From the NCBI GenBank assembly GCA_963976795.1, contig CAXBLT010000017.1:549-64548 (forward strand): a DNA stretch of 64,000 nucleotides, read 5' to 3'. Shown here piece by piece: positions 7,932 to 51,930 of the stretch; position 1 is the first letter of the stretch, and every line of letters starts with the position of its first letter. The stretch is from an uncultured Gammaproteobacteria bacterium. GTDB lineage: Bacteria; Pseudomonadota; Gammaproteobacteria; Eutrophobiales; Eutrophobiaceae. The notes beneath the pieces were generated by a model, which was not told the DNA's origin, did not search any database, and saw nothing but the letters and a program-made list of their open reading frames with translations. A program made the translations under genes and the position numbers.

Positions 7932-10763
7932 ATGCCTGTCAACCCAGAACAAGACTTAAAACCTAGCCTTGGTAGCGTAGAAACCCACTTCCTTAAGATT
8001 AACCAACAGCGAATCGAACTCACCCGCCAGGGACTCAGTGAGCGCCAAGCCAAATTTATTGAGCTTTTGCCTCTCCTTTTTCATGAGAATAACCCAAGTC
8101 TGCCGGGTTATATTAACGATGCTACGCCAGCAGGTATATCCGAATACGCCCCAGAACAGTCAACGATAAAAATCGCCAAAGGTTTTTTTAAGGACTACAA
8201 AATAACTCGGCGTGCACGCCGGATTATGGATATACATGGTATATATTTTATGGGTAGCAGTGGCTCGATAGCTTATAACAGCAAAAGTGATTTTGATGTC
8301 TGGTTATTACATTCCTCATCATTGGATGCAGACGCCATAGACCTTGTTCAGAAAAAAGCCAGTGCCATTGAACAGTGGGCCGATCAAGAACTGCACCTCG
8401 AAGTGCACTTTTTTGTTTTCTCAGCAGAAGAATTTAAGCACGGAGTACAACAAGGACTGTCTTCAGAGAGTAGTGGTTCTGCTCAACATTATCTATTACT
8501 GGATGAATTTTATCGTTCCAGTTTATTAATCGCTGGAAAAATACCCACATGGTGGCTGGTGCCCCCAGAACACGAACAGCGTTATGATGTTTATATCGAA
8601 GAAATGGCCCAGAAAGGCAAGATTAAACCTACAGACAGTATTGATTTTGGTGCTGTTGCAGATATACCCGCATCAGAATTTTTTGGCGCAGCCGTATGGC
8701 AACTCTATAAAAGCATTCATTCACCCTATAAATCACTAATGAAACTTCTACTTATGGAAGTTTATGCGAGCGAATATCCTTCAATACCATTATTAAGCAT
8801 GATGTTTAAAGAAGCCGTATATCAAGGTGTCGAAACGCTTGATGACCTTGATCCCTACTTAATGATGTATAAAAAGGTCGAAGAATACTTAATGGTTAGA
8901 AATCAGCGTGAACGTCTTGAGCTATTTCGACAATGTTTTTACGTAAAAATAAAAGAGCCGCTGAGTCACGAAGTTAAAAAGAAAAGTTGGCGCAGAGATC
9001 TATTCAAGCAAGTAGTACTGGATTGGGGCTGGACACAAGATCAATTCAAGACAATGGATACTAAGAATGAATGGCAAATCAATATGATTGCCCAGCAACG
9101 AAATCGCTTAATGAATGCTTTAACCGAAAGTTATCGTTTCCTCTCCGCATTTGCCAGAAAAAACACCGAAGTCTCTCGAGTTAGCCAGACGGAGTTGCAT
9201 GTCCTGGGCCGTAAACTATATGTTGCATTTGAGCGTAAGGCTGGCAAGGTCGATATTATTAACCGTAATAATGACACCAACATAAACTATTCTAAAATCA
9301 CGATTTACCAAAAGAAAAATCCGTCAGGAAAAGATAGCTGGCAAATGTATCAGGGCCATATAAATGTACAAGTTATCAATGATTACAAGCCTATCAAACG
9401 TGCGAACAGTGTCATCGAATTAGTTACATGGGCCTATTTTAATAAGATTATAGACTCTCACTCCGCTATATCGTTAACTAATAGTGATGAGTTAACCGTT
9501 AAAGAATTAAGACAAATCCTCATGTCTTTTGAAGAAGAATTTCCATCCCGGCAACTACCGGAAGCTGATTTTAATTCACTCAATCAGGCAGCGCAGGTAC
9601 AGCATGCTTGTGTTTACATTAATGTAGGCTACATTCCGCAAGGCGGCACAAAAGATACTGTCCATCATGTCTCAAGTGTTAGAGACAATATACTCAGCTA
9701 TGGTGGTCAGCATAGCAATCTTGCCTATAGCTTTGATTTACTAATATGCACCACTTGGGAAGAATTACTGACATTCAGATTTGAAGGAACCGATGCATTA
9801 TTACAATGTATTTGTGAGTACTTGCGTTGGACAACACTTGGTGGCGCATCAAGGCCACCTGAGTTAAACGCCTTTAGTTACTCATCGAGCTATGGCTCAA
9901 GCATTACTCGGCGTATTGAAGAAATCATGCTTAATATCACTTCTGAATACTATGGAAAACAGCTACACGAAAACACACGTTATGTCATCGAGATTGAAGA
10001 CTCTCATCACATTCTTTTCAATGAAGAAGGTCGTCTGCAATATAAATACATTGGTTCTGACACCCACTTGTTACGTAGTCTAGCCACTCCCAATAGTAAA
10101 TTCAGCCCCGTTTTTTTCGATAATAAAACACATGGTAGCAACGTCATTCGGGACTTATTTAAATACAATAAACCTGAGTGCATACAACTATTTTATTCAA
10201 CGAATAACAATATGGCCGACATCTACATTATTGATGAAAATGGTTCTTTATTTTTTCAGACCATACCGTTTCATGATAGTCAGGCATTGATCAATCATTT
10301 TGATCTTTTCTTCAAGGCGACAATTAATCGACGCACATTTCTCATACTAGATTCAGAATCAAACATTGATACTCTGGAGATTGAATTTTATTCAATCCAT
10401 TATGACAAAACAGGAAAACTAAACATAAAGAAAATAGACACTAAAATCCGGGAAAACAATCGCCGTTTCTTCAATATACAGGTCATTGGTAGTCCGGACG
10501 ACGAACATAACTCCTTATGTGTCTTCTGCGAAGATACAGAGTTTTCCTTTATAGAACATGGTAAAGACTTATTTAATGTAGTTGCCAATCACATCATAAA
10601 ACAGCGTGCTAACGGTCAAAAGTATCCTATCTATATTACCGATATTGATATATCACGCGGTCTTATAAACCAGATTGAACCAAAAAGTCTACAAACCGTA
10701 CATTATCTGAATTATAAAAAACGTATTGAAGACAAACTCAATCAAGCTATCGCAATAAGCTAA
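7932..10763 (+). CDS. cyaA: Class I adenylate cyclase
   Basis: Long stretches are near-identical in pattern to enterobacterial CyaA, for example HYLLLDEFYR, FGAAVWQLYKSIHSPYK and CFYVK. 943 aa with a C-terminal regulatory region. Confidence 0.85.
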   Translation: MPVNPEQDLKPSLGSVETHFLKINQQRIELTRQGLSERQAKFIELLPLLFHENNPSLPGYINDATPAGISEYAPEQSTIKIAKGFFKDYKITRRARRIMDIHGIYFMGSSGSIAYNSKSDFDVWLLHSSSLDADAIDLVQKKASAIEQWADQELHLEVHFFVFSAEEFKHGVQQGLSSESSGSAQHYLLLDEFYRSSLLIAGKIPTWWLVPPEHEQRYDVYIEEMAQKGKIKPTDSIDFGAVADIPASEFFGAAVWQLYKSIHSPYKSLMKLLLMEVYASEYPSIPLLSMMFKEAVYQGVETLDDLDPYLMMYKKVEEYLMVRNQRERLELFRQCFYVKIKEPLSHEVKKKSWRRDLFKQVVLDWGWTQDQFKTMDTKNEWQINMIAQQRNRLMNALTESYRFLSAFARKNTEVSRVSQTELHVLGRKLYVAFERKAGKVDIINRNNDTNINYSKITIYQKKNPSGKDSWQMYQGHINVQVINDYKPIKRANSVIELVTWAYFNKIIDSHSAISLTNSDELTVKELRQILMSFEEEFPSRQLPEADFNSLNQAAQVQHACVYINVGYIPQGGTKDTVHHVSSVRDNILSYGGQHSNLAYSFDLLICTTWEELLTFRFEGTDALLQCICEYLRWTTLGGASRPPELNAFSYSSSYGSSITRRIEEIMLNITSEYYGKQLHENTRYVIEIEDSHHILFNEEGRLQYKYIGSDTHLLRSLATPNSKFSPVFFDNKTHGSNVIRDLFKYNKPECIQLFYSTNNNMADIYIIDENGSLFFQTIPFHDSQALINHFDLFFKATINRRTFLILDSESNIDTLEIEFYSIHYDKTGKLNIKKIDTKIRENNRRFFNIQVIGSPDDEHNSLCVFCEDTEFSFIEHGKDLFNVVANHIIKQRANGQKYPIYITDIDISRGLINQIEPKSLQTVHYLNYKKRIEDKLNQAIAIS

Positions 10764-10838
10764 TCGGTCAACATTCTGGAGAATATGACAGCAGACTAAA
10801 GTATAATCACACGTTGGTATTAATACTTTGGTGTCATC

Positions 10839-11714
10839 GTGTCAGAAACAGACAAATTAGTAAAACGGCTAGACTCATTACTTGATAAGATTGAACCCTT
10901 TATTCCGGACTTACCAAAGGGTATAAACAAGTTTAATGGTGGTGCATTCCGCTGGCAAAGCTATGGACATAGCGGTCTTTTTCATGAGATTAAACACGCA
11001 ACGAAAATAAGACTCTCGGACTTACAATGCATAAATAGACAAAAAGAAAAGATCGACCTCAATACACGTCAATTTATGTCAAATCTTCCTGCAAACAATG
11101 TTCTACTCTGGGGGCCCAAAGGAACCGGAAAATCCTCCTTAATAAAAGCCCTGTTGAATGAATATAAAGCTGAGGGTTTAAACTTGATTGAGGTTGAAAA
11201 AAATAACCTGGGAGATCTAAGAATTATTATTGAACAACTGAGTGAGAAGGCAGCACATTTTGTTCTTTACTGCGATGACTTATCATTTGAAGCGGATGAC
11301 CCCAGTTACAAGGCCATCAAGGTCGTATTAGATGGCTCCTTGAGTCAGACTCCTGATAATATATTGATCTACGCGACATCAAATCGTCGCCATTTATTAC
11401 CCGAAATGATGAGTGAAAATGTTTCCAGCCAAAATATCCATGGCGAATTACATCTGAACGAAGCAATTGAAGAAAAATTATCCTTATCAGAACGGTTCGG
11501 CGTATGGTTAGCATTCCACCCTTTTAATCAGGATCAATATCTAGAGATTGTAGATTACTGGTTAAGCAAATTTGATTTTGTCAGTAAAGATATGGAAGCT
11601 GTCCGCAAGGCCTCACTAAAATGGGCGCTTGAACATGGTTCGCGTAGTGGTCGATCTGCCTGGCAATTTGCTAGAGATTGGGTCGGTCAAAACAAATTAA
11701 AAAACGGAATATGA
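10839..11714 (+). CDS. AAA-type ATPase of the DUF815 family
   Basis: Walker A LLWGPKGTGKSSL. Walker B-like VLYCDDLSFE. About 290 aa. The overall pattern matches DUF815 (PF05673) ATPases. Confidence 0.6.
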   Translation: MSETDKLVKRLDSLLDKIEPFIPDLPKGINKFNGGAFRWQSYGHSGLFHEIKHATKIRLSDLQCINRQKEKIDLNTRQFMSNLPANNVLLWGPKGTGKSSLIKALLNEYKAEGLNLIEVEKNNLGDLRIIIEQLSEKAAHFVLYCDDLSFEADDPSYKAIKVVLDGSLSQTPDNILIYATSNRRHLLPEMMSENVSSQNIHGELHLNEAIEEKLSLSERFGVWLAFHPFNQDQYLEIVDYWLSKFDFVSKDMEAVRKASLKWALEHGSRSGRSAWQFARDWVGQNKLKNGI

Positions 11715-12265
11715 CGAAAGAATCTATTACTACTGAAAACGCGCAGGCTGTGTTACATGATGCTGAGCAACTCTATAGCGAAAATGATGTTGAACAAGCT
11801 ATTGCTAACATCGCCATAGCCATTACGGAAAAACTATCTACTGATAATCCAATAGTTTTGCCGGTGATGAATGGGGGCTTGATACTAGGCGGGAAACTAA
11901 TACCGCAACTCGATTTCCCCTTACAGGTCGATTATATACATGCAACGCGTTATCGCGGTGCGACTAGTGGTAGCGAGTTACACTGGTTAAAGAGAGCAGA
12001 AATACCCTTGCAGGACAGAACTATTTTATTAATCGATGACATTCTTGATCAAGGCATAACACTTGCCGCAATAATCGATGACTGTTACAAACGTGGTGCT
12101 AATAAAGTACTCACCGCAGTACTGGCAGAAAAGATAATAGAACAGGACAAACCACTCAAGACTGCAGATTTTACGGGCTTAAAACTACCTGACCGCTATG
12201 TCTTTGGAAGTGGAATGGATTATCATGAATACCATCGTAACTTAACGGGTATTTATGCCATATGA
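11711..12265 (+). CDS. hpt: Purine phosphoribosyltransferase (hypoxanthine/guanine PRTase-like)
   Basis: PRPP-binding motif ILLIDDILDQGITL. About 185 aa. The six-frame ORF begins at 11678, but the MTKES start at 11711 avoids an overlap with the upstream gene. Confidence 0.7.
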   Translation: MTKESITTENAQAVLHDAEQLYSENDVEQAIANIAIAITEKLSTDNPIVLPVMNGGLILGGKLIPQLDFPLQVDYIHATRYRGATSGSELHWLKRAEIPLQDRTILLIDDILDQGITLAAIIDDCYKRGANKVLTAVLAEKIIEQDKPLKTADFTGLKLPDRYVFGSGMDYHEYHRNLTGIYAI

Positions 12266-13014
12266 GTAAAATTGCAATCATAGGTGGCAGCGGTTTGACA
12301 GAGCTGCCGGGCTTACAAATCATTGATAAGATCGAAAGAGAAACTCCATGGGGAAAACCTTCTGCAACCATTACCATTGGCAAGGTAAATAATCTTGAAA
12401 TTTTATTTCTACCGCGCCATGGCAACCCCCATACGATTCCACCACACAAAGTTAATTACCGCGCAAACCTTTGGGCGTTACATGAAAGCAGTGTCAGCAA
12501 GATAATTGCGGTTAATGCAGTTGGCGGTATTACGCAAAAAATGACACCCTGCCGTATAGTAATACCCGACCAACTCATCGACTATACTCATGGTCGTTCA
12601 GATAGCTTTTACGAAGAGAACCTGTCTGAGGTAAAACACATCGACTTTACAAACCCTTATTCAGAAATATTACGCCGGCAATTAATAAATGCCGCAACAG
12701 AAGCTAAAATCGATATTGTTAGCACAGGAACATATGCTGTAACCCAAGGACCCAGGTTGGAAACAGCTGCGGAAGTAGCTCGTCTGGAAAAAGACGGTAA
12801 CAACATCGTGGGTATGACGAGTATGCCAGAAGCTAGTTTAGCCAGAGAATTGGACATAGAATACGCCTGTTGCGCATTGGTCGTTAACTGGGCAGCAGGT
12901 AAAACCGATGAAGTCATTACGATGGAAGTAATAGAACATAATTTAACTGAGGGGTTGGAGAAAGTACAAAACTTGATAGCAAACTTCATTAATAATGAAT
13001 CAACTATCAAGTAA
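12262..13014 (+). CDS. mtnP: S-methyl-5'-thioadenosine / methylthioinosine phosphorylase (PNP family)
   Basis: MSKIAIIGGSGL N-terminus plus conserved PNP/MTAP core. The ATGA start overlaps the hpt stop. Confidence 0.85.
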   Translation: MSKIAIIGGSGLTELPGLQIIDKIERETPWGKPSATITIGKVNNLEILFLPRHGNPHTIPPHKVNYRANLWALHESSVSKIIAVNAVGGITQKMTPCRIVIPDQLIDYTHGRSDSFYEENLSEVKHIDFTNPYSEILRRQLINAATEAKIDIVSTGTYAVTQGPRLETAAEVARLEKDGNNIVGMTSMPEASLARELDIEYACCALVVNWAAGKTDEVITMEVIEHNLTEGLEKVQNLIANFINNESTIK

Positions 13015-13186
13015 ATTTATTGCTTGTCCCTATTGTGGTGAAAAAATAGAAATTGTCATTGATTGCAGTGTCTCTGAACAACACTATATAGAAGATTGCG
13101 AAGTGTGTTGTCGACCAATAACTTTATCAGTGTCGGTTGATGAAAATGAAGAAGTCGTTGTATATCCTAAACACGAAAATGAGTAA
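12995..13186 (+). CDS. Small cysteine-rich CPXCG zinc-ribbon protein
   Basis: 63 aa with CPYCG...CxxCC motifs. Overlaps the mtnP 3' end by about 20 nt. Confidence 0.5.
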   Translation: MNQLSSKFIACPYCGEKIEIVIDCSVSEQHYIEDCEVCCRPITLSVSVDENEEVVVYPKHENE

Positions 13187-13215
13187 TAAATATTTCTAAT
13201 GATGGAAAATTAACT

Positions 13216-13686
13216 ATGAAATATAGTCTACTAATATTATTTATTTTAAGCTTGATCGCATGTGAGCAAACAGAGCTTAGTTGGCATACTATCAACGCAG
13301 AGATACAGAAAAAGTTTCCGGAAATAGAACGCATCACGATCAATGAGCTAAATGCAAAAGATCATGCAAACATAATTCTCATTGATGTTAGAAAAAAAGA
13401 AGAATTTATGGTCAGCCATATTGCTGGCGCAATAAATCTGACAGATCCCTTTGACATTGCAGAAATAGCATCAGAATCAGAGAAAGATGTTGTCGTCTAT
13501 TGTTCAGTCGGCTACCGCTCAGCAGCAGTCGTACATGAATTGAAAAATCTAGGCATTAGTAATGCGGTAAATCTAGAAGGGTCCATCTTTGCCTGGTCTA
13601 ATGCAGGTCTGCCGCTTGTCAACAAAGCAGGCCGTACTCGTGACGTACATCCCTACGATGAATATTGGGGGCAACTACTGGATTAA
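13216..13686 (+). CDS. Rhodanese-domain sulfurtransferase, predicted lipoprotein
   Basis: Signal peptide with lipobox LIAC. Rhodanese active-site loop YCSVGYRS. About 156 aa. Confidence 0.75.
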   Translation: MKYSLLILFILSLIACEQTELSWHTINAEIQKKFPEIERITINELNAKDHANIILIDVRKKEEFMVSHIAGAINLTDPFDIAEIASESEKDVVVYCSVGYRSAAVVHELKNLGISNAVNLEGSIFAWSNAGLPLVNKAGRTRDVHPYDEYWGQLLD

Positions 13687-13708
13687 CAGTAAAAGCCTGC
13701 CTATAAAC

Positions 13709-14404
13709 CTAATTACTAGACCTAAGTCTGCTCACTTGTAGAATCACACCAAACATTGGGTGATCAAAGTAGTGGATCTCATTAAGTTTAATCTTCCGGG
13801 TTTCTTTAAGTTTTATCACTGTTTTATTTGTAGTGCCTACGAACGACTCTTCACTGGTGCGAAGGATTTTATTCTCAGCGGGAAGGTCCTTGAAATATGA
13901 AAAATCAACATCAACATGTAAATAAAAACCACTTCTTATCCTGATTGATCCGTCAATAATTCTATTTAGTGGCATTAAATCATCTATAAATTCAGGCTCA
14001 TCATCCAAGCCAGCTGATTCCGCAACAGGAATAGTCGAATTAGCATCCAGTTTCTGTAAATGAACGTAACGCGATTGCCTACGTTCCGTAGCTGGTTGTT
14101 GCCAGGATAGATGTATCAGTGGTCTGTATTGGCTAGAGAGTTTGAAAGCACGTTGCACACCATTTAAACGATTACGATCTTTAGGCAGAATCATATAGGG
14201 AAGCAGGCCATCGCTTGTCTCAGTTGCTTGCAGCTCAATCAAATTGTCTCTCATGGAAAACGTTTCATTTTGCCATTGTTCACCATCCAAATCAGGATTG
14301 ATCCTATCAAAGACAACGACTTCAACCTGATACCAGGATGCGGCTGTTACAGTAGGTGGAAAAACAAAAAGTAAAACGAGGAGACTAAGTTTAAAATGAT
14401 TCAT
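13709..14404 (-). CDS. Periplasmic protein, possibly CsiV family
   Basis: Cleavable signal peptide. About 230 aa. Located immediately downstream of mfd, as csiV is in Vibrio. The family assignment comes from context and size only. Confidence 0.35.
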   Translation of the reverse strand: MNHFKLSLLVLLFVFPPTVTAASWYQVEVVVFDRINPDLDGEQWQNETFSMRDNLIELQATETSDGLLPYMILPKDRNRLNGVQRAFKLSSQYRPLIHLSWQQPATERRQSRYVHLQKLDANSTIPVAESAGLDDEPEFIDDLMPLNRIIDGSIRIRSGFYLHVDVDFSYFKDLPAENKILRTSEESFVGTTNKTVIKLKETRKIKLNEIHYFDHPMFGVILQVSRLRSSN

Positions 14405-14411
14405 ATGCCTA

Positions 14412-17400
14412 TTATGCCGCGATCTTTAGTGCAATTTCATTAAAAAGATATTCTAATATCTGTAACCTTGATTCGGCATCGGGTAAGTCTTTACTAATCC
14501 TGAGCTTATCCTGTCCATCAAGTTTGTAACTACTCGGATCGGATTGAATCAAATGGATAATACGTCCAGGGTCTATATTAGCATCTGGCAGGAAAAAGAC
14601 CCGGCCACCCTTCAAGCCCATATCAATTTTACGAATACCCAGTGGACGTGCTAGTTGCTTGAGATTACTTACCGCAAATAGATTTTTAACCGCGTCTGGT
14701 AATAAACCGAATCTGTCGATCATTTCTTCCTTCAATTCATTAAGCTCCGAACTTAATTTTGCACTAGCAATGCGTTTATACATGATTAAACGCATATGAA
14801 CATCAGGCAGGAAGTCTTCAGGGATCAAGGCGGGGATGTGCAAGTCAATCTCAGCACCATGATCAAGTGGTCGATCTAACTCAGGCTGCTTACCTTCTTT
14901 CATAGCATGCACCGCTCTGTCCAGGAGTTCCATGTACAGACCAAAACCTATTTCTTGTATATGTCCGCTTTGCCCCTCACCTAGTATTTCACCTGCACCT
15001 CTTATCTCAAGATCATGCGTAGCCAGAGTAAAACCAATACCTAATTCTTCCAAAGCTTCTATGGCTTCAAGGCGTTTCACAGCATCCGCAGTCATGGCTT
15101 TACGTGACGGGACAATGAGGTAAGCATAGGCGCGATGATGTGAACGACCTACTCGTCCACGTAATTGATACAACTGAGCCAAACCAAATTTATCAGCTCG
15201 GTTGATGATGATGGTATTCGCTGATGGGACATCGATGCCTGTTTCGATAATGGTTGTACAAACAAGAACATTAAAGCGACGGTGATAGAAATCCAACATG
15301 ATCGATTCGAGTTGCTTCTCTGGCATTTGTCCATGCGCAAACTCAACTCGGGCTTCAGGTAAAAGTTTGCCTATTTCTTCTGCCGCCTTTTCTATGGTCT
15401 TGACTTCATTATGCAGATAAAAGACTTGACCTCCACGTTTGATTTCTCGCAACATGGCTTCTTTTAATAAGGTGTCACTGCGTTCGCGTACAAAGGTTTT
15501 TACCGCAAGTCGCCTCGCTGGTGGTGTCGCAATGATAGAAAGTTCTCGTAGATCTGACAGCGCCATATTTAATGTCCTGGGGATTGGCGTAGCCGTTAGC
15601 GTTAATACATCAATTTCTGCACGTAATGATTTGAATTTTTCTTTTTGCCGCACACCGAAACGATGTTCCTCATCAATAATAATCAAACCCAGGTTTTTAA
15701 AGTTAATATCAGCTTGTAATAGCTTATGCGTACCGATAACTATGTCGGCTTTACCATCCGCCATTGCAGATAAGGCAACGTCTTGTTCTTTTTTTGATCG
15801 GAAACGTGATAATAACTCAATGCGTACCGGCCATTCAGAAAATCGATCAACAAAATTTTGGTAGTGCTGTTGTGCTAACAAGGTCGTCGGCACCAATAAG
15901 GCAACTTGTTTTCCATTTTGTACGGCAATAAAGGCAGCACGCATTGCAACCTCTGTTTTACCAAATCCTGCGTCACCGCAAATTAATCTATCCATTGGTT
16001 TGTCACTGCGCATATCTTCTATCATGCTCTGAATGGCATCATATTGACCCGGTGTTTCTTCGAAAGGGAATTTTTGTGCGAAGACAAAGTACGCATCTTG
16101 GTCGAACTCGTAAGACTGCCCCTGTCTCGCCGCACGTCGCGCATGTAACTCTAATAGTTCTGCCGCAACATCATAGACCTTCTCTGCCGCTTTGCGTCGT
16201 GCCTTCTGCCATTGACCACTACCTAATTTATGTAACGGCGCATGTTCCGGATCAACGCCGGTATAACGTGAGATCAACTCTAATGCCGCAACAGGGACAT
16301 AAAGCTTATCGCCTTCTGCATACTCAAGGTGAATAAATTCACCAGGTATACCGCCAGCGTCAATGGTAATCAGTCCACAATAGCGACCGACACCATGATC
16401 TTCATGGACAACAGGTGAACCTACACTCAATTCTGTCAGGTTACGAACAACCGCTTCTGCATCTTGTTGCTTGCGTTTACGCAACCGTCGTTGCATAACA
16501 CGTTCACCAAACAATTGTGCTTCAGTTATGATAGCAATATCAGGTTCATGCATTATCAAGCCATTCTCAATGGGCATGATTGCAATAGCAAACTCAACAT
16601 CACTCTGGAGGAAACTATCCCAATTTTCTATTTTAGCTGGTGCGCCACTGTGCTTGAATAATTCCATGATAGTCTCGCGACGACCTTGAGTTTCTGCTGC
16701 AATCAATACGCGACCATCGAACTCATTTAAAAAACGCCTGACTAATGCGAGAGGTTCTTTAGCTCGAGCATCTATTGAGAGGCTGGTTGGTAGTTCAGAG
16801 TTGAATTCAATATAAGCAGAACTGGATTCAGGCGATAGATTTACTATATGCACCTGTGGGTAAAGTTTAAAAGCCGTATAAAGGTCGTTAATATTCAGAA
16901 AAACTTCTCGTGGCGGTAATATGGGTCTTTCCACATCGTAACGTTCTTGCTCATACCGCGATTCAATATCTTCCCAGAATGTTTCAGCCGCTGCTTTAAC
17001 GCCTTCATCTAATACGAGAATTGAATCTTCAGCGACATAATCAAATAAAATGCTGGTCTCTTCATAAAAGAGTGGCAAATAATACTCTATACCTGCTGGC
17101 GCGAGTGATTGGCTCACATCACGATAAACGGGGCATTGTGCCGGGTTACCTTCAAATCGCGCGCGCCAATTAGCACGAAAACGAGCGATTCCTTCATCCA
17201 CCAATGCAACTTCTCTGGCGGGTAAAACACGTATCGATTCGACTTTATCAATCGAGCGTTGTGTCTCAATATCAAAAGTGCGAATACTATCAACCTCATC
17301 ATCGAATAAATCGATACGAAAAGGATTTATAGCTCCCATCGGGAATATATCGAGTAAAGATCCTCGTTTTGAAACTTCACCATGTTCAGTAACCTGATCA

Positions 17401-30597: not shown

Positions 30598-31653
30598 TTA
30601 TCCGAATAATGCAAGCATTTTTTCAGTGTCCGGATTATGCACAATTCCCTTTTCTGTGACGATGACATCAACCAATTTTGCCGGGGTAATATCAAACGCC
30701 GGATTAATGGCCTCGATGTCGTTTGGAGCAATTCGAGTGGCCTTAAAGTCCGTGATTTCTTCAGTTCCACGGTTTTCTATTGGTATATCTGCACCCGTTT
30801 CAATATCCATATCAATCGTCGATGAAGGTGCTACAACCATCACTTTTACCCCGTGATAATAAGCAGAGACCGCATGCGAATAGGTGCCAATCTTATTTGC
30901 GACATCACCATTTGCAGCAATTCGATCTGAACCGACTATCAGCCAGGCTATTTTGTTACTTTCCATCACGCTTGCAATTGCAGAATCTATCACTAACTTC
31001 ACCGGGATCTGATCTTGTTGTAATTCCCAACTGGTCAAACGCGCTCCCTGAAACCAGGGACGGGTTTCAGAAGAAAATACATTTGTAATAGAACCCTTTT
31101 TAAATGCTGTTCTGATAACTCCCAAAGCCGTACCGTAACCACCTGTAGCCAATGCCCCCGCATTACAATGTGTGATTACCTGACTATTAGCTAGAATTAA
31201 CTCAGCGCCTAAACGTCCCATTTCATGATTTGCGGCGATATCCTCTTTATGAATTTGCTTTGCCATTTCTAATAAAACAGGTTCTGGGTTGCCTTCAATC
31301 AGTGCAAAAGCCTGGCACATTTCAGCAATCGCCCAATGCAAATTAACCGCTGTGGGTCTTGCCGCAGCAAGTGTCTCAATATCCCCTGCTATTTTTTCTC
31401 TCCATAACTCCTCTGCATCCTGCCAAGCTGTCCGCGCTGCTAAAACAACGGCATAGGCCGCAGCAATCCCTATCGCCGGGGCTCCTCGAACCACCATGTC
31501 TTTAATTGCTATTGCGACGGCACTAGCTGAGTCATAATTAAGATAGTTTATTTCTCGTGGCAGTTTCCTTTGGTCTAATAAGCTCAACATTCCTGCATTC
31601 CATTTCACGGCAGAAAATGCTTCCGGTGGAAATTCTAATTTATCGTTGTCCAA
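30598..31653 (-). CDS. mtnA: S-methyl-5-thioribose-1-phosphate isomerase
   Basis: eIF-2B alpha/beta/delta-like fold. 351 aa. VRGAPAIGIAAAY motif. Adjacent to gyrA and to the deaminase, as in Pseudomonas. Confidence 0.85.
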   Translation of the reverse strand: MDNDKLEFPPEAFSAVKWNAGMLSLLDQRKLPREINYLNYDSASAVAIAIKDMVVRGAPAIGIAAAYAVVLAARTAWQDAEELWREKIAGDIETLAAARPTAVNLHWAIAEMCQAFALIEGNPEPVLLEMAKQIHKEDIAANHEMGRLGAELILANSQVITHCNAGALATGGYGTALGVIRTAFKKGSITNVFSSETRPWFQGARLTSWELQQDQIPVKLVIDSAIASVMESNKIAWLIVGSDRIAANGDVANKIGTYSHAVSAYYHGVKVMVVAPSSTIDMDIETGADIPIENRGTEEITDFKATRIAPNDIEAINPAFDITPAKLVDVIVTEKGIVHNPDTEKMLALFG

Positions 31654-31712
31654 TTCGTTTTATCCTGTTAATGATTTATCATGATGAAAAAACCAAGGAT
31701 ACCTCTTTCAAG

Positions 31713-33026
31713 ATGAATGTTGATACTTTAGTTCATGCCCGATGGATTATACCTGTAGAACCGGCAAATACCGTCTATGAAAATTATTCGATTGCGATCA
31801 AAGGCGACAAGATCGAAGGGATACTCCCGACAGATGATGCGAAGAAAAAATTTACTGCAATAGCCGAACACAATTTGGAAGACCATGTGCTTATCCCGGG
31901 CCTGATCAATGCACATACCCATGCAGCCATGACCTTGTTACGTGGTCTAGCTGATGACCTGCCTTTGATGGAATGGCTCAATGAGCATATCTGGCCGGCT
32001 GAACAAAAATGGGTTAATCCTGAATTCGTCAAAGACGGTACCGAAATCGCTGTAGCCGAAATGATCCGTGGCGGCACCACTTGCTTTAATGATATGTACT
32101 TCTTTCCCGATCAGACAGCAGAAGTTTGCGCCAATATTGGTATGCGTGTCGTCGTCGGTTTAATCCTAATCGATTTTCCCACTGCTTGGGCTAATGACGC
32201 TGATGAATATGTACTAAAAGGTGAACAAGTACACGACACCTACCGCCATAACCCTCTGATAAATACTGCCTTTGCGCCACACGCGCCCTACACTGTGTCG
32301 GACGAACCACTAAAACATATCGATGTGCTAGCAGAAGAACTCGATATCCCGATTCATATGCACATCCATGAAACAGCATTTGAAGTTGAACAAAGCATCG
32401 AACAACACGGCAAACGTCCGTTACAACGCCTAACAGAACTTGGTGTCATCAGCCCGCGGATGTTGGCCGTGCATATGACACAGCTGAAAAAAGACGAAAT
32501 AGAAGAACTCGCGAAGCTCGGTGTTAGCGTCGCTCATTGCCCGGAATCGAACCTCAAACTTGCCAGTGGCTTTTGTCCCGTCGCAGAACTACATAAAGCG
32601 GGGGTTAATGTTTGTATCGGTACCGATGGTACCGCCAGTAATAATGATCTGGATATGATCGGCGAAATGCGCACCGCTGCCCTACTCGCCAAAGGTGTTG
32701 CCAACGACACCACAGTTCTTGATGCACACACTACTTTAAAGATGGCCACACTCAATGGCGCAAAGGCACTTGGACTGAATGAGTCGATTGGTTCATTAAA
32801 GAAAGGAAAGCAAGCCGACATCGTTGCAATCAACCTCAACCAACTCGAAACCGCTCCAAACTACGAACCACTATCGCAAATCATCTATGCCGGAAACCGT
32901 GAACAAGTCAGCGATGTCTGGATAGCAGGGAAGCAAGTTTTAAAGAACCGAGAATTAACAACAATGGAATACTCCAAACTGATGGAGAAGGCGAAAAGCT
33001 GGGAAAAGAAAATCAAGTCTAATTGA
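31713..33026 (+). CDS. mtaD: 5-methylthioadenosine/S-adenosylhomocysteine deaminase-like amidohydrolase
   Basis: Metal-binding HxH motif LIPGLINAHTHAAMTLLRGLADDLPLMEWL. About 437 aa. The start is assigned to MNVDTL at 31713. The six-frame ORF runs upstream to 31557, overlapping the mtnA 5' end. Confidence 0.8.
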   Translation: MNVDTLVHARWIIPVEPANTVYENYSIAIKGDKIEGILPTDDAKKKFTAIAEHNLEDHVLIPGLINAHTHAAMTLLRGLADDLPLMEWLNEHIWPAEQKWVNPEFVKDGTEIAVAEMIRGGTTCFNDMYFFPDQTAEVCANIGMRVVVGLILIDFPTAWANDADEYVLKGEQVHDTYRHNPLINTAFAPHAPYTVSDEPLKHIDVLAEELDIPIHMHIHETAFEVEQSIEQHGKRPLQRLTELGVISPRMLAVHMTQLKKDEIEELAKLGVSVAHCPESNLKLASGFCPVAELHKAGVNVCIGTDGTASNNDLDMIGEMRTAALLAKGVANDTTVLDAHTTLKMATLNGAKALGLNESIGSLKKGKQADIVAINLNQLETAPNYEPLSQIIYAGNREQVSDVWIAGKQVLKNRELTTMEYSKLMEKAKSWEKKIKSN

Positions 33027-33067: not shown

Positions 33068-33622
33068 ATGCTAGAAGATATTTTTAAAGGATTAAGCGCT
33101 GCCTCTGGAATAGAAACCATTACTGACTTTGGCGCAATCTACAATCGTGACCAAGGCCCAAACCTGGTAACGATAAAACTATCAATAGAACAATATAAAT
33201 CCTACTTCTATCTTCGAATTTCTATTACCTACAGCCGTGGCATGAGTAAAAAAACACGCGTTATTAAATGGCCTTACAGTGAAACAGAAGCAAACGATTT
33301 AACCCTTGTTATTGAGGACATAAAAAAAGTAGTACAAGCCAAGGATCACCCGGAACTTAATTTAAGCGATAACCGAACGGGTATTGGCCGTTGGTTTGAT
33401 TCGCTCACGGGAAGAAAATACTACGGCTATTTTGAATTCACTTCACCGGGAAGACTCACTGAAGACATCAGCGTCACTGCCGAAATCACTGATTCAGGAA
33501 AGGATACCCTTGTCTCACTCACAGAAAGGAAAAAAGGCCACAGCTTTATATTATCCCACCCACCGCATGATGCGTTTGAAGTCATTTTGTCCACACTAGA
33601 AAAATTCATGTCAGAAAACTAA
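33068..33622 (+). CDS. Hypothetical protein
   Basis: 184-aa ORF, 41 nt after mtaD, with RBS aaggtaag. No recognisable family. Confidence 0.4.
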   Translation: MLEDIFKGLSAASGIETITDFGAIYNRDQGPNLVTIKLSIEQYKSYFYLRISITYSRGMSKKTRVIKWPYSETEANDLTLVIEDIKKVVQAKDHPELNLSDNRTGIGRWFDSLTGRKYYGYFEFTSPGRLTEDISVTAEITDSGKDTLVSLTERKKGHSFILSHPPHDAFEVILSTLEKFMSEN

Positions 33623-36131: not shown

Positions 36132-37172
36132 ATGGAATTCACAAAGTTAGGCAACACTGACATCAAAGTCAGCCGCATTTGTCTCGGAACGATGACCTGG
36201 GGCGAACAAAACACCCAAGTCGAAGCACACCAGCAATTAGATTATGCGGTGGACGCAGGTATTAATTTTATTGATACCGCTGAAATGTATCCGGTGCCGC
36301 CGACAGAAGAAACCCAGGGGCTGACCGAAACCTATATTGGTAGCTGGTTGGCAAAAAGACAGGATCGCGATAAATTGATTATTGCCAGTAAGGTTTGCGG
36401 TCAAAATCTTTTTGCGCCCTACTTACGCAATGGTCAAGCAAAGCTCGATAAAAAGAATATCCATCAGGCATTAGATGCTTCTTTAAAACGACTACAAACG
36501 GATTACATCGATCTCTATCAAACACATTGGCCGGATCGTGATACTAACTACTTTGGTCAATTGGGTTATTACCATGCTCCGGAAAAAGACGGCACAGCAA
36601 TTGCCGAAACACTGGATGTGTTCGATGGATTGATAAAGGAAGGCAAGATTCGGATGATTGGTATTTCAAATGAAACCCCGTGGGGTTGCGCAGAATATCT
36701 CCGCGCCGCTAAGGAACTCAATTTACCAAGAATAGTGAGCATCCAGAACCCTTACAATCTACTCAACCGAACCTTTGAAATTGGTCTTTCAGAATTTTCC
36801 CATCGCGAACAAACAGGCTTGTTGGCCTACTCGCCGCTCGCTTTTGGTGTATTAAGTGGTAAATTTTTAAACGGTGCCAGACCCGCAGGTACTCGCCTCG
36901 TATTGTGGGATCGTTTCAGTCGATATTCAAACCCGCAGGCCGATGCGGCAACCGCAGACTATGTCAAACTGGCACAAGAAAATGGATTGGATCCAGCGCA
37001 AATGGCATTGGCTTTTGTGAATAGCCGCCCCTTTCTCACCAGTAATATTATTGGTGCGACATCCATGGAACAACTAAAAAACAATATCGAGAGTATCAAT
37101 ATCAAACTCTCGAAAAAAATTATCAAAGCAATCGAAACTATCCATGAAAAAATCCCAAACCCTTCTCCTTAA
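36132..37172 (+). CDS. NADP-dependent aldo/keto reductase (Tas/YajO-like)
   Basis: AKR signature ICLGTMTWG...GINFIDTAEMY. 346 aa. Confidence 0.85.
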   Translation: MEFTKLGNTDIKVSRICLGTMTWGEQNTQVEAHQQLDYAVDAGINFIDTAEMYPVPPTEETQGLTETYIGSWLAKRQDRDKLIIASKVCGQNLFAPYLRNGQAKLDKKNIHQALDASLKRLQTDYIDLYQTHWPDRDTNYFGQLGYYHAPEKDGTAIAETLDVFDGLIKEGKIRMIGISNETPWGCAEYLRAAKELNLPRIVSIQNPYNLLNRTFEIGLSEFSHREQTGLLAYSPLAFGVLSGKFLNGARPAGTRLVLWDRFSRYSNPQADAATADYVKLAQENGLDPAQMALAFVNSRPFLTSNIIGATSMEQLKNNIESINIKLSKKIIKAIETIHEKIPNPSP

Positions 37173-37554
37173 TTTTTATCTCGCCTTAAGCTGTGTTTTG
37201 CTTTCTCCTTCAGCATTTGCATCGGAGACAGAGGAGATATGGTTATATGTCTTTTTAATTCCAGTTTATTTTGTATTGGCCCTGCAATCTCTCTTGGGAT
37301 TGTTTATGTTGGCAATGAAACAATTTAATTCCAGAAAGTCGATTTTAGTTCTGATTATCCCGGCAGTTTTGTTGATGATAATTGGAATCTTAATCACGCT
37401 TTACTTTCAATCTCCAAATGAATTATGGGGGCTCCTCTCAATATATTTAGTATTTACTCCGTTCATCTTTGTACTGCCACCCATTCAATATCGCATTTTA
37501 AATAAACCCGGAGAGACTCCTGAAGAAGTTCTGAAGGAAGACCTTGAGGAATAA
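37144..37554 (+). CDS. Small integral membrane protein
   Basis: 136 aa with an N-terminal signal-like segment followed by 3 hydrophobic helices. Overlaps the AKR 3' end by 29 nt. Confidence 0.4.
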   Translation: MKKSQTLLLNFYLALSCVLLSPSAFASETEEIWLYVFLIPVYFVLALQSLLGLFMLAMKQFNSRKSILVLIIPAVLLMIIGILITLYFQSPNELWGLLSIYLVFTPFIFVLPPIQYRILNKPGETPEEVLKEDLEE

Positions 37555-39074: not shown

Positions 39075-39590
39075 ATGAATAACCTTGATGAATACATTCT
39101 GGGTGAGTCCACAGAAGACCCCATCAAAGTCGAGACGCGCCAGGATAATGCGGATGCGGCACTCGCACTGGTAAAACAATGCAAACTAAAACTCGCTATT
39201 ATCTCCAAAGAGCTGGATCCTTTCGTCTACGATCAACCCGAGTTTGTCGAAGCAGTCCGGCAGTTGGCATTAAAAGGGAGAAATGTCGATATCCGTATTC
39301 TGGCCTTTGAACCCGAATTAATCGTTCGCAGAGGTCATAAGCTCGTTGATTTAGCAGGAAAAATCAGCAGTTATGTTGAAATACGTAAACCATCATCACA
39401 ATATAGATCATTCAATGAAGCGGTGTTGATTGCCGATGAAGTAGGCTATCTGTTTCGAGAAAGCGCAGAACGATATGGAGGCAAAGTAAACTTCAACGGC
39501 CGCCGCGAGTCGAAGTATATGTTGGAGGTATTTAATAGTATGTGGGAGACATCTAAACCAGACCCCAACTTTAGAAGGATGCACATGTAA
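39075..39590 (+). CDS. Hypothetical protein
   Basis: 171-aa ORF, 26 nt after purB, with RBS ggacgggaag. No recognisable family. Confidence 0.4.
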   Translation: MNNLDEYILGESTEDPIKVETRQDNADAALALVKQCKLKLAIISKELDPFVYDQPEFVEAVRQLALKGRNVDIRILAFEPELIVRRGHKLVDLAGKISSYVEIRKPSSQYRSFNEAVLIADEVGYLFRESAERYGGKVNFNGRRESKYMLEVFNSMWETSKPDPNFRRMHM

Positions 39591-39628
39591 GTCTGGAAAC
39601 CCCAATTGACCAACCTTAAATTTAAACT

Positions 39629-40555
39629 ATGCAATACAACACGTACTTTCCTATCTTAGCATCACGCTTATTCTGTGAGCACGCCTACAGATTGAAAAAA
39701 CTGACTCTACTTGCTCTATTATTTACTGCCGTTAACAGCACTGCTGTTATGGCGGAACCGATGAAGATCGAGACTATTCCCATGCAAAATAGACAAGTCG
39801 AAGATGTTATTCCCATTCTCAAACCATTAGTTGCTGAAGGCGGCACCGTTACCGGAATAAATAATAAGTTGATTGTTAAAACCACACCTTCAAACCTCAA
39901 ACAAATTAAGCAAGTCCTGTCAGAAATCGATAATGCCCCACGCCGTTTAATGATCAGTGTCAAACAAGATGTCGATGGAAACCTCAATGTTGAGGAAAGT
40001 GGCGTTTCCGGACGCTATAGCACCGGAGAGGTCACAATAGAATCGCCCGACACGGGTCGTGGCGGCACTATCATTCAGGGCAAAGACAGTGATGGCAATG
40101 TCGTCCGCTACCGTCAATTGGAAACTCGATCACGGCTAGAAGATAGAAATGTCTTTCGCGTTCAAGCATTAGAGGGCAATCCAGCCTATATCAGTACAGG
40201 TCAATCTGTCCCTATACCAAATCAAACTGCATTCGTCACAGGCGGTGGCGTAGTCGTTCAGGATGGTGTCGAGTATCGAGACGTGGAATCCGGCTTTTAT
40301 GTCCTACCCAGGATTCAGGGCGATAATGTCACGCTATTAATATCACCCAAACTATCCCGCGTCAGTCCAAATCAAGCCGCGACATTTGATATACAAAATG
40401 TCGAAACCACAGCGAGTGGTCGATTGGGAGAATGGATACCCATCGGTGGTGCCACACAGCATTACAATGATAGCTCGAAAAGAAACTTGATTAGCACAAA
40501 ACGACGCGGGCAAGAACAGAGGAATGTATTAGTTAAAGTAGAAGAGATTAAATAA
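39629..40555 (+). CDS. Secreted protein with secretin N-domain (NolW-like) and a short secretin-like C-terminal region
   Basis: Region IETIPMQNRQVEDVIPILKPL...NNKLIVKTTPSNLKQIKQVLSEIDNAPRRLMISVKQD fits the secretin_N pattern. The signal peptide KKLTLLALLFTAVNSTAVMA is only in frame if the start is the TTG at 39692. Confidence 0.5.
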   Translation: MQYNTYFPILASRLFCEHAYRLKKLTLLALLFTAVNSTAVMAEPMKIETIPMQNRQVEDVIPILKPLVAEGGTVTGINNKLIVKTTPSNLKQIKQVLSEIDNAPRRLMISVKQDVDGNLNVEESGVSGRYSTGEVTIESPDTGRGGTIIQGKDSDGNVVRYRQLETRSRLEDRNVFRVQALEGNPAYISTGQSVPIPNQTAFVTGGGVVVQDGVEYRDVESGFYVLPRIQGDNVTLLISPKLSRVSPNQAATFDIQNVETTASGRLGEWIPIGGATQHYNDSSKRNLISTKRRGQEQRNVLVKVEEIK

Positions 40556-40564
40556 CACCAGTCT

Positions 40565-40590
40565 GTCATTCCCGTGTAGACGGGAATGAC
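40565..40590. terminator. Bidirectional hairpin between convergent genes
   Basis: Perfect 10-bp inverted repeat gtcattcccg-tgtaga-cgggaatgac, between the 39629..40555 (+) and 40620..40967 (-) ORFs. Confidence 0.45.
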
Positions 40591-40619
40591 AAAGAAAATA
40601 CATATCGTTGTAAATCAGG

Positions 40620-40967
40620 TTAAATATCCAAAACTAATTCCAAACCCTCATTCAGTTCCAGTTTTTGATTCGGATTTAACTTCCCTGCTTTTTCAATTAA
40701 ATAAGATTTATCTAGCGTGATAATCTGTGACAGGTTAATAACTGACTCTTTCTTTAAACCAATATTTTTGTTTACGCCCAATTTAATATTTCCAGGGGCT
40801 CTAGCTAATGCCAGGTTTGATGTAATTACTGCGACAACAATCGTTTTTATTTTACTTTTATTAAAATCATCTGATTGAACGATAACAATTGGTCTTCGGT
40901 AACCGGGTTCTGACCCCCTCGGCTCATCAAGATCTGCCCACCAGATCTCACCTTTTTTGTAGTCCAT
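40620..40967 (-). CDS. MazF/PemK-family type II toxin (mRNA interferase)
   Basis: 115 aa. N-terminus KGEIWWADLDEPRGSEPGYRRPIVIVQSDDFN is characteristic of PemK/MazF. Confidence 0.8.
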   Translation of the reverse strand: MDYKKGEIWWADLDEPRGSEPGYRRPIVIVQSDDFNKSKIKTIVVAVITSNLALARAPGNIKLGVNKNIGLKKESVINLSQIITLDKSYLIEKAGKLNPNQKLELNEGLELVLDI

Positions 40968-49902: not shown

Positions 49903-50988
49903 TTATGCTGCTTTTGCATAACCCTTTTCTTCTATTAATACTGTTTTGTTACTAGTTGCATTTCCTGAAAAATCCATCCATAAATGATTATCATAATCAT
50001 ATAATTTGCATTTTCCCATCGTTGCAAAAAAGCTCACTAGTGAAAAGTCCATCGTAATTAAATCCTCTCCGTACAACTCACATAGAACTGTCTGTGCTTT
50101 TGATAAATTATAGAGAGGTATTCTCGGATCAACATGATGCGCCGTGTGCTCCATTGCATTGTGACTAATCAAATTATACCAATGCGGATATTTTATATGC
50201 ACAGTTATATCTTCGAGAGTTGCGTATGCATTACATTCTTTTTGAGTCTTAAACCATGGAACAGTTTCGTGAGTATGATGTTGATACACAGTCACTCCTA
50301 TCAAGAAATTACTTACAAGAAAAGGAAGCACTAGTCCTAACAATATTACTTCTAACGGACTTGTGTATGCGACGTGCATCCCCATATAAATAAGTACTGT
50401 TGTAAAAGCTGCCATATAACTAACTACTAGTACGAAATCCAGAAAATAAGCACCATTTTTCTGTTTGATAATTCGTTTGTATGGAAAAAACTTATCTTTC
50501 CACCAACGTTCAATCATGTAGTTGAAACAAATTCCTAGTGGAGAACGATATAAATGTTCTATCAGCTTTCGACTTGCAGACAAACCATCATATTCTTCTT
50601 TTGACAATGGCGACCATGAATTTATACCTTTAATGTTAGGAGATTGATGGTGTGAGCGATTATGTGCGATTAACCATAAACTGTAATTATGAAATGAAGG
50701 TAAAAAGGCTATGCGGCCTATTATAGAATTCCATACTCGGTTGGATGTAAAACTATCATGTCCCGCATCATGTGAAACCAGGAATAACGTCCCTATTCTC
50801 AGCCCTGCTATAACACTACATGTTATTCTTAACAGCAGGCTTTCAAACATGATTGTCCCGGCTATCGCCAATGCATAGATAGTGAGATCAGAAAAAAATA
50901 TAAATAATGCAAGTTTATTTGATGGTTTTGCGTACTGTTTTATTGAGTGCCGTAACTCTTTTGTATTTAAATTATTCATTATAATCAC
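49903..50988 (-). CDS. Integral-membrane fatty-acid desaturase family protein
   Basis: Three histidine boxes, HDAGHD, HNRSHH and HTAHH, with multiple TM segments, as in PF00487 desaturases. 36 nt downstream of the rpfF-like gene. Confidence 0.8.
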   Translation of the reverse strand: MIIMNNLNTKELRHSIKQYAKPSNKLALFIFFSDLTIYALAIAGTIMFESLLLRITCSVIAGLRIGTLFLVSHDAGHDSFTSNRVWNSIIGRIAFLPSFHNYSLWLIAHNRSHHQSPNIKGINSWSPLSKEEYDGLSASRKLIEHLYRSPLGICFNYMIERWWKDKFFPYKRIIKQKNGAYFLDFVLVVSYMAAFTTVLIYMGMHVAYTSPLEVILLGLVLPFLVSNFLIGVTVYQHHTHETVPWFKTQKECNAYATLEDITVHIKYPHWYNLISHNAMEHTAHHVDPRIPLYNLSKAQTVLCELYGEDLITMDFSLVSFFATMGKCKLYDYDNHLWMDFSGNATSNKTVLIEEKGYAKAA

Positions 50989-51024
50989 CTGTTCCTAAGC
51001 TTGTTTAATTGTTTTACGTAATAA

Positions 51025-51930
51025 TCAAGATACACTTACTTTTGAATATTCATGCTGGTATTCTGTCTCGTACCTTTTCTGACTACGCAACAAACGATTG
51101 ATTGTCCTAATATCTTTATCAGAGATATCAAAAACTGTATCAACCCAAGAGTCACAGCAAATATCCATCAGCTCCTGTTGGTCATAGTGATTTAAATTTT
51201 GAACTATTTTTTGCATCGCCATATTTCCATTCCAGTTTTTATTATGGTTTTGGACATATGAATAAACGGCCTCTTCGCCGCAGTGATCATCCACAAGAAC
51301 ATCAATAATTCCCATGTCATATAATTCTTCTGCGCTATATAAATTACCGCTGGAAATCAGTTTATGAGCCTTGTTTAACCCTATTCTTGATGAGAGTGTC
51401 TGGAATGCCCCCATGCCAGGAAAACAATTAAACAATATTTCAGGAAAACCCATCATTGCTGAACGCTCTGCAATGATCACGTCACCTGATAATGCTATTT
51501 CAAAGCCACCACCAAGTGCATTTCCCCTAACCAAAGATATAGTGACAATGGGTAAATTAAAATTTGTCATTATCGGATAGATCGCTTTTATACAATTAGC
51601 TGCGTATTTCTCCAGAGCTATTCTGTCCTTGTTTTTAATACAATTTAAAAAATGATTGAGGTCACCACCTAAACTAAAGACTCCATTCGCGTGTGAATCA
51701 AGAATGTGATACTTAACCGTTTGCATTTCTCCATCAATGGGTAGCTGTCCATTATTAATTTCAATACATCGATGCAAAGTTCGAATATCATCAACTAATT
51801 GTGGCGTTACACACGGCTTTGGAAATGCATCCAGGTAAACCCAAACTATTCCATCATCAGCATCAAATTCATAATTAATGTGTTCAAGCTTATTGATCGT
51901 ATTTTTCAAATTAAAATTTAACGTACTCAT
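51025..51930 (-). CDS. rpfF: Enoyl-CoA hydratase/crotonase-family DSF synthase (RpfF-like)
   Basis: VRGNALGGGFEIALSGDVIIAERSAMMGFPEILFNCFPGMGAF...GNLYSAEEL closely parallels Xanthomonas RpfF (VQGNALGGGFEAALSCHTIIAEEGVMMGLPEVLFDLFPGMGAY...GNLYSAEQL). 301 aa. Confidence 0.8.
   Translation of the reverse strand: MSTLNFNLKNTINKLEHINYEFDADDGIVWVYLDAFPKPCVTPQLVDDIRTLHRCIEINNGQLPIDGEMQTVKYHILDSHANGVFSLGGDLNHFLNCIKNKDRIALEKYAANCIKAIYPIMTNFNLPIVTISLVRGNALGGGFEIALSGDVIIAERSAMMGFPEILFNCFPGMGAFQTLSSRIGLNKAHKLISSGNLYSAEELYDMGIIDVLVDDHCGEEAVYSYVQNHNKNWNGNMAMQKIVQNLNHYDQQELMDICCDSWVDTVFDISDKDIRTINRLLRSQKRYETEYQHEYSKVSVS

Follow-up and report, generated by a model that had tools for sequence, protein, structure and literature searches.

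Which purine does a phosphorylase of the methylthioadenosine phosphorylase family release when its gene lies directly behind hpt, the gene of a hypoxanthine-guanine phosphoribosyltransferase (Hpt)? The question is raised by a 64,000-nucleotide (nt) stretch of DNA from an uncultured gammaproteobacterium (GenBank assembly GCA_963976795.1, contig CAXBLT010000017.1, positions 549 to 64,548 of the forward strand), hereafter the window. Here the phosphorylase gene overlaps the end of hpt, and an amidohydrolase gene and mtnA, encoding S-methyl-5-thioribose-1-phosphate isomerase, are found further along. An earlier reading of the sequence (the original prediction) had proposed that the phosphorylase prefers S-methyl-5'-thioinosine, also written 5'-methylthioinosine (MTI), over 5'-methylthioadenosine (MTA), and that these genes belong to a methionine salvage route in which MTA is deaminated before it is cleaved. 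From the analyses below we conclude that the window very probably carries this deaminase-first branch of methionine salvage together with an attached purine-recycling enzyme.

In the proposed route, the amidohydrolase would deaminate MTA, a by-product of S-adenosylmethionine (SAM) use, to MTI. The phosphorylase would then use phosphate to split MTI, yielding hypoxanthine and methylthioribose-1-phosphate. MtnA would isomerize the methylthioribose-1-phosphate, leading toward methionine, and Hpt would turn the released hypoxanthine and phosphoribosyl pyrophosphate into inosine monophosphate.

Family and Fold of the Phosphorylase

The phosphorylase (coordinates of all features in Table 1) scores 362.3 bits with NF006599, the curated equivalog model for S-methyl-5'-thioinosine phosphorylase, which has a cutoff of 223. 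The second-best model is TIGR01694 for MTA phosphorylase (MTAP) with 280.8 bits, so that the MTI model is higher by 81 bits. Models for purine nucleoside phosphorylase (PNP) give at most 83 bits and stay far under their cutoffs (82.6 vs 218 for NF006054 and 55.8 vs 293 for TIGR01700). Among solved structures the top sequence match is 3OZB (E = 4.8e-82, 55% identity over 242 residues), which bears the PDB title 5'-methylthioinosine phosphorylase from Pseudomonas aeruginosa in complex with hypoxanthine; MTA phosphorylases match with E = 6.6e-48 or weaker.

The same entry is the top Foldseek match (E = 6.6e-34, TM 0.88/0.91) of an AlphaFold model of the window protein with a mean pLDDT of 82. Sequence identity is 36% to human MTAP and 22% to human PNP. 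At the protein level the nearest match, on a Logan contig, has 90% identity, and named relatives come only from metagenome assemblies labelled "Gammaproteobacteria bacterium" or "Thiotrichaceae bacterium". Taken together, these matches support a putative MTI phosphorylase of the type of P. aeruginosa PaMTIP (PA3004, 3OZB). The original prediction had called the gene pair hpt-mtnP; its hpt part stands, and the second gene is better named MTI phosphorylase (mtiP) than mtnP.

Base and Sugar Pockets

The window phosphorylase was aligned with PaMTIP, human MTAP and human PNP. The two human sequences were checked by the expected residues landing at positions 178/220/222 of MTAP and 201/243 of PNP. 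In this alignment Glu167, Asn209, and Ala211 of the window protein occupy the positions of MTAP Ser178, Asp220, and Asp222. PaMTIP has the same Glu/Asn/Ala triple, and Glu167 and Asn209 correspond to Glu201 and Asn243 of PNP. We take the two PNP residues to be the contacts to 6-oxopurines and the MTAP triad to be responsible for adenine recognition. None of the three triad residues is present in the aligned window protein. The comparison with PA3004 and human MTAP at the purine-specificity residues, proposed together with the original prediction, accordingly places the enzyme with PaMTIP.

Other positions resemble MTAP. Arg52, His53, His126, Met185, and Thr186 are common to both at the level of the alignment, including the phosphate-site residues Arg52/His53, and Arg52, His53, His126, Met185, and Met221 are identical between the window protein and PaMTIP. 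Met221 and Ile224 are hydrophobic as in MTAP, and Ile224 aligns with PNP His257, presumably the contact to the 5'-hydroxyl. The window phosphorylase would in this way resemble PNP in its base pocket and MTAP in its sugar pocket, a combination reportedly present in PaMTIP as well.

These features are conserved among relatives. Glu167 and Asn209 are kept without exception in all 80 related loci (sample described below), and at least 79 of the 80 have a hydrophobic residue at the His257-equivalent position, as in MTAP and PaMTIP. Among the top 150 cluster representatives from a library of 1.84 billion proteins, 111 carry Glu-Asn-Ala, 8 carry Glu-Asn-Gly and 10 carry Ser-Asp-Asp, and mixed states are almost absent.

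Five full-length members (P0149, P0205, P0189, P0199, and P0207) have neither Glu/Asn nor Ser/Asp at the two positions (e.g., Pro/Gly, Ala/His, Ser/His, or Gln/Cys). They could have another base specificity or be inactive.

Phosphoribosyltransferase Neighbors of the Phosphorylase Genes

Hpt scores 236.5 bits with NF006605 (PRK09162), above the curated cutoff of 181, and its residues 7–184 align to positions 3–180 of the 183 in the profile. The best solved relative is 5ESX/5ESW (E = 1.6e-48). The predicted start of the gene is best placed at ATG 11711 (184 aa), because the 183-position profile aligns from residue 7, because the gene calls of relatives with 90% and 80% identity give a protein of 183–184 aa, and because this ATG overlaps the stop of the preceding DUF815 gene as a second ATGA.

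We sampled 80 loci of the Glu/Asn type (one genome per species scanned, phosphorylases 51–68% identical to that of the window). All are from Gammaproteobacteria, including Chromatiales, Thiotrichales, Methylococcales, Marinobacter, and Pseudomonas. In 56 of these loci the phosphorylase gene is preceded by hpt on the same strand, with an overlap in 15 cases (8 by 4 nt) and spacings of 0–30 nt in 22 and of 31–150 nt in 14. The adenine phosphoribosyltransferase (Apt) gene apt was found beside the phosphorylase gene in none of the 80 loci.

As a control, we used 80 metagenomic MTAP loci picked from representatives of the Ser/Asp type. Here apt adjoins the phosphorylase gene in 25 loci (in 24 within 300 nt on the same strand), and the flanks of all 80 are without an hpt homolog. 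By Fisher's exact test the p values are 5e-24 for hpt and 6e-9 for apt; they are indicative only, as shared ancestry is ignored and flank lengths are unequal between the two sets.

The fusions, each a single open reading frame (ORF), divide in the same way. In P0201 (455 aa) and P0271 (428 aa; locus L081, 966..2252) an Hpt of the NF006605 type is linked to a phosphorylase of the NF006599 type, and in P0254, L082, and L088 a Ser/Asp-type MTAP is linked to Apt. The hpt-phosphorylase fusions are rare: only two were found, which share 49% identity and each lie on a contig of ∼2.7 kb. They could be sequencing frame errors and lend weak support.

Because hpt and apt are divided in this way between Glu/Asn-type and Ser/Asp-type loci, and the fusions alike, it is sound to conclude that the neighboring phosphoribosyltransferase matches the base that the phosphorylase releases. 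Reading the specificity from the hpt neighbor, as the original prediction did, is therefore borne out by the control (hpt 56/80 vs 0/80; apt 0/80 vs 25/80). The predicted preference for MTI rather than MTA has the support of the family model, the 3OZB match, the pocket residues, and this neighbor control. A much wider generalization seems rather doubtful to us, namely that an hpt or apt neighbor of any MTAP-family phosphorylase is a general marker of the purine released, that overlaps and fusions reflect a physical phosphorylase-phosphoribosyltransferase complex passing the base on directly, and that the deaminase-first route is the common one in sulfur-oxidizing and methane-oxidizing Gammaproteobacteria.

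The Amidohydrolase and mtnA

MtnA scores 426 bits with TIGR00512 (cutoff 279). Its gene and that of the amidohydrolase are divergent, lie just past gyrA and have 56 nt between them, in agreement with the ∼60 nt given earlier. The amidohydrolase aligns over residues 5–436 of 438 with P. aeruginosa 4DYK/4GBD (E = 9e-151) and matches 4F0R, an "MTA/SAH deaminase" (SAH, S-adenosylhomocysteine) from Chromobacterium, with E = 1.9e-139. Homologs are named MTA/SAH deaminase by the Joint Genome Institute (JGI), and the NCBIfam label is only the generic "TRZ/ATZ family hydrolase". The gene order serC-gyrA-mtnA followed by the divergent deaminase gene is kept in three relatives (69–77% identity).

The divergent deaminase/mtnA arrangement beside gyrA presumably matches PA3168-PA3170 of P. 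aeruginosa, and we take 4GBD to be PA3170. The MTA deaminase-like amidohydrolase of the original prediction is thus backed by the full-length matches to 4DYK/4GBD and 4F0R and by the conserved pairing with mtnA, and is a good candidate for the MTA deaminase of a deaminase-first route of the PaMTADA type. No mtnN, mtnK, or ahcY was found within the 64-kb window.

The deaminase gene is followed directly, in the same orientation, by an ORF (33068..33622, 184 aa) that matches no NCBIfam or Pfam family.

Alternative Explanations

Several points weigh against a deaminase-first branch in the window. The phosphorylase narrowly passes the older MTAP model TIGR01694 (cutoff 274.85, exceeded by 6 bits), and its preference for MTI is itself a prediction from the residues and the family. 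The ligand-contact roles of the individual pocket residues are presumed ones, as is the equation of 4GBD with PA3170. The neighbor counts ignore shared ancestry, and the hpt pairing is not obligatory, because P. aeruginosa-like and Marinobacter loci are without an adjacent hpt. The genes mtnB, mtnC, and mtnD were not found within the 64-kb window, to which the search for mtnN was also confined; completion of the route to methionine is accordingly presumed, as is the flux through it.

Three other explanations can be set against these data. The enzyme could be a true MTA phosphorylase that releases adenine, its place behind hpt being a coincidence of operon packing. The TIGR01694 score, the name MTA phosphorylase that some sources give to close homologs, and the frequency of 4-nt overlaps in the window all agree with this. 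We regard it as extremely unlikely, since all three adenine-recognizing residues are replaced (Ser178 by Glu, Asp220 by Asn, and Asp222 by Ala), the MTI model outscores the MTAP model, and hpt is absent from the Ser/Asp-type MTAP loci, which have apt instead in 25 of 80 cases. It is also very improbable that the pair serves ordinary purine salvage, in which an inosine/guanosine phosphorylase (PNP) would feed Hpt with no link to methylthio-nucleosides. Such an enzyme would suit the PNP-like Glu167/Asn209, the hpt neighbor and the name "purine nucleoside phosphorylase" used by JGI for some homologs; the scores far under the PNP cutoffs, the low identity to human PNP (22%), the MTAP-like phosphate-site residues Arg52/His53 and the hydrophobic Ile224, near Met221, at the His257-equivalent position of nearly all relatives (at least 79/80) speak against it.

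Finally, the phosphorylase could act broadly on 5'-deoxy-6-oxopurine nucleosides and clear 5'-deoxyinosine, which would arise by deamination of the radical-SAM by-product 5'-deoxyadenosine. MTI would then be one of several substrates and methionine salvage not the main purpose. For the promiscuous archaeal MtiP of Methanocaldococcus jannaschii, six purine nucleosides are described as substrates, MTI and 5'-deoxyinosine among them (PMC6302742). The first step may also be broad, as 4F0R is named a bifunctional MTA/SAH deaminase, and the missing mtnB, mtnC, and mtnD fit this explanation as well. On the other side, the deaminase gene is conserved beside mtnA, a dedicated methionine salvage gene, and among characterized relatives the MTI enzyme of P. 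aeruginosa is the closest (55% identity). We consider a mainly broad function unlikely, and it overlaps with the deaminase-first salvage branch instead of excluding it. The salvage branch with attached purine recycling remains our preferred explanation.

Gene Cluster Around hpt and the Phosphorylase Gene

Four plus-strand ORFs at 10839–13186, encoding the DUF815 ATPase, Hpt, the phosphorylase, and a small CPXCG protein, touch or overlap (Table 1). As described earlier, the phosphorylase gene starts on the ATGA that terminates hpt: in the sequence ...GCCAT ATG A GT..., ATG 12262 opens its ORF, and TGA 12263–12265 closes that of hpt. The original prediction had also spoken of the phosphorylase being fused to hpt. 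The adjacency and the overlap hold and the fusion does not, as the two genes of the window are overlapping, separate ORFs. A second ATGA (11711–11714) joins the start of hpt to the stop of the DUF815 ATPase gene, and the phosphorylase and CPXCG genes share 20 nt at the 3' end of the former.

Table 1. Positions of the genes and junctions discussed in the text, numbered from the first nucleotide of the window.
Feature	Position	Strand	Family or basis
DUF815-family AAA ATPase gene, first in the overlapping chain	10839..11714	+	PF05673 DUF815, 327 bits
hpt, hypoxanthine-guanine phosphoribosyltransferase, 184 aa	11711..12265	+	NF006605 PRK09162
ATGA junction, phosphorylase start / hpt stop	12262..12265	+	read from sequence
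Predicted S-methyl-5'-thioinosine (MTI) phosphorylase gene, 250 aa	12262..13014	+	NF006599; 3OZB
Small CPXCG cysteine-rich zinc-ribbon gene, 63 aa	12995..13186	+	PF14255, 74.5 bits
Rhodanese-domain gene, last same-strand gene of the cluster	13216..13686	+	PF00581 + NF045521
mtnA, S-methyl-5-thioribose-1-phosphate isomerase	30598..31653	-	TIGR00512
5'-Methylthioadenosine deaminase-type amidohydrolase gene, likely start ATG 31710	31710..33026	+	4DYK/4GBD, 4F0R
MazF/PemK-type toxin gene	40620..40967	-	

By itself, the 4-nt overlap of hpt and the phosphorylase gene is ordinary. Such overlaps occur in 4 of the 39 same-strand adjacent gene pairs of the window, and overlaps of any length in 10 of the 39. 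We therefore rejected the ATGA overlap alone as meaningful evidence. What goes beyond chance is the conservation of the hpt-phosphorylase pair rather than the overlap. Scanning 10600..14500 for promoters and terminators revealed nothing inside the cluster above the shuffled expectation. The overlapping genes are probably co-transcribed and the pair may be translationally coupled; the operon boundaries are tentative, and the rhodanese gene may or may not be part of the operon.

The two closest relatives, with phosphorylases 90% and 80% identical to that of the window, have the same order of DUF815, hpt, phosphorylase, CPXCG, and rhodanese genes, after which csiV, mfd, pyrF, and lapB follow in the opposite orientation. 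The rhodanese gene is thus at the same position in both, and the 4-nt overlaps of DUF815 with hpt and of hpt with the phosphorylase gene are also present. The CPXCG gene is kept at the same position in loci L001, L002, and L164. It is not called in L162, L163, and L165, and some gene callers miss it. The overlap arrangement of DUF815 and hpt is kept in L001, L002, and L162-L165, and none of the other 78 related loci has it.

Across the 80 Glu/Asn-type loci the widespread order is nagZ, hpt (missing in some loci) and the MTI phosphorylase gene, beyond which csiV and mfd lie on the opposite strand. Upstream nagZ is present in 48 of the 80, and csiV and mfd follow the phosphorylase gene in many of them, Pseudomonas-type loci included. 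The lineage of the window has cyaA and DUF815 in place of nagZ.

Other Genes in the Window

At 49903..51930 on the minus strand, the gene of a crotonase-family protein similar to RpfF, the diffusible-signal-factor synthase (NF006452 passed, RpfF model below its cutoff), adjoins a fatty-acid desaturase-family gene; the two could form a pair for fatty-acid signaling or lipid modification. The stretch 39075..40967 groups a DUF7931 gene with a MazF/PemK-type toxin gene and a short secretin-domain ORF of 308 aa, whose matches to Secretin and Secretin_N are weak. No antitoxin partner of the toxin gene was identified among ORFs of at least 110 aa. A further ORF (37144..37554, 136 aa) matches no NCBIfam or Pfam family. 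The remaining genes of the window are housekeeping genes.

Comparison With Known Systems

The deaminase-first pathway and both of its special enzymes have been described for P. aeruginosa (Guan et al., 2011, 2012, summarized in PMC6302742), PaMTIP among them (Guan et al., 2011, cited in PMC6302742), and reviews present the route as an unusual P. aeruginosa pathway. PaMTIP is the best match of the window phosphorylase in both sequence and fold, has an identical base-pocket triple and belongs to the same NF006599 family. Downstream csiV and mfd are found in the relatives and in Pseudomonas-type loci alike. The upstream side differs: in the Pseudomonas loci sampled the phosphorylase gene comes directly after nagZ with no adjacent hpt, whereas in the window it comes after hpt, with a 4-nt overlap, within the chain of DUF815, hpt, phosphorylase, and CPXCG genes.

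Human and archaeal MTAP (EC 2.4.2.28; 1CB0, 2A8Y, and 1V4N) share the fold of the window phosphorylase with a TM of about 0.85. As judged from the alignment, they also share the phosphate-site residues and a hydrophobic 5'-alkylthio pocket, and both enzymes would yield methylthioribose-1-phosphate for MtnA. The two differ in Ser178/Asp220/Asp222 of MTAP against Glu/Asn/Ala of the window protein, and the phosphoribosyltransferase gene next to MTAP genes, where present, is apt and not hpt. The deaminases of P. aeruginosa (4GBD/4DYK) and Chromobacterium (4F0R) align over nearly the full length of the window amidohydrolase, which NCBIfam names only generically. Hpt belongs to the same family as the Legionella-type hypoxanthine-guanine phosphoribosyltransferase (PRK09162; 5ESW/5ESX), and nothing distinctive was found in it.

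The specificity reading is supported but not new, as it follows the known P. aeruginosa route and the family is already named in annotation: the curated NCBI model, JGI and a deposited homolog all say MTI phosphorylase. JGI uses the name for many homologs, and the cluster of P0008 (80% identical to the window phosphorylase) contains a member deposited as "MAG: 5'-methylthioinosine phosphorylase". We found no publication on a conserved hpt-MTI phosphorylase operon or on its apt-MTAP counterpart in a literature coverage that is incomplete, which is not proof that neither has been published. The result opens no new mechanism, and the split between hpt and apt neighbors is a modest extension of a known pathway.

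Its practical value lies in annotation. Homologs appear in public records under three inconsistent names (MTA phosphorylase, MTI phosphorylase, and purine nucleoside phosphorylase), the predicted MTI phosphorylase of the window also passes the TIGR01694 "MTAP" model, and the partner deaminase has only a generic name, which together make an annotation hazard. Glu/Asn vs Ser/Asp at two positions and hpt vs apt as neighbor both split the enzyme types cleanly in the sampled sets. Rather than being peculiar to P. aeruginosa, the deaminase-first route is, as these data suggest, widespread among Gammaproteobacteria.

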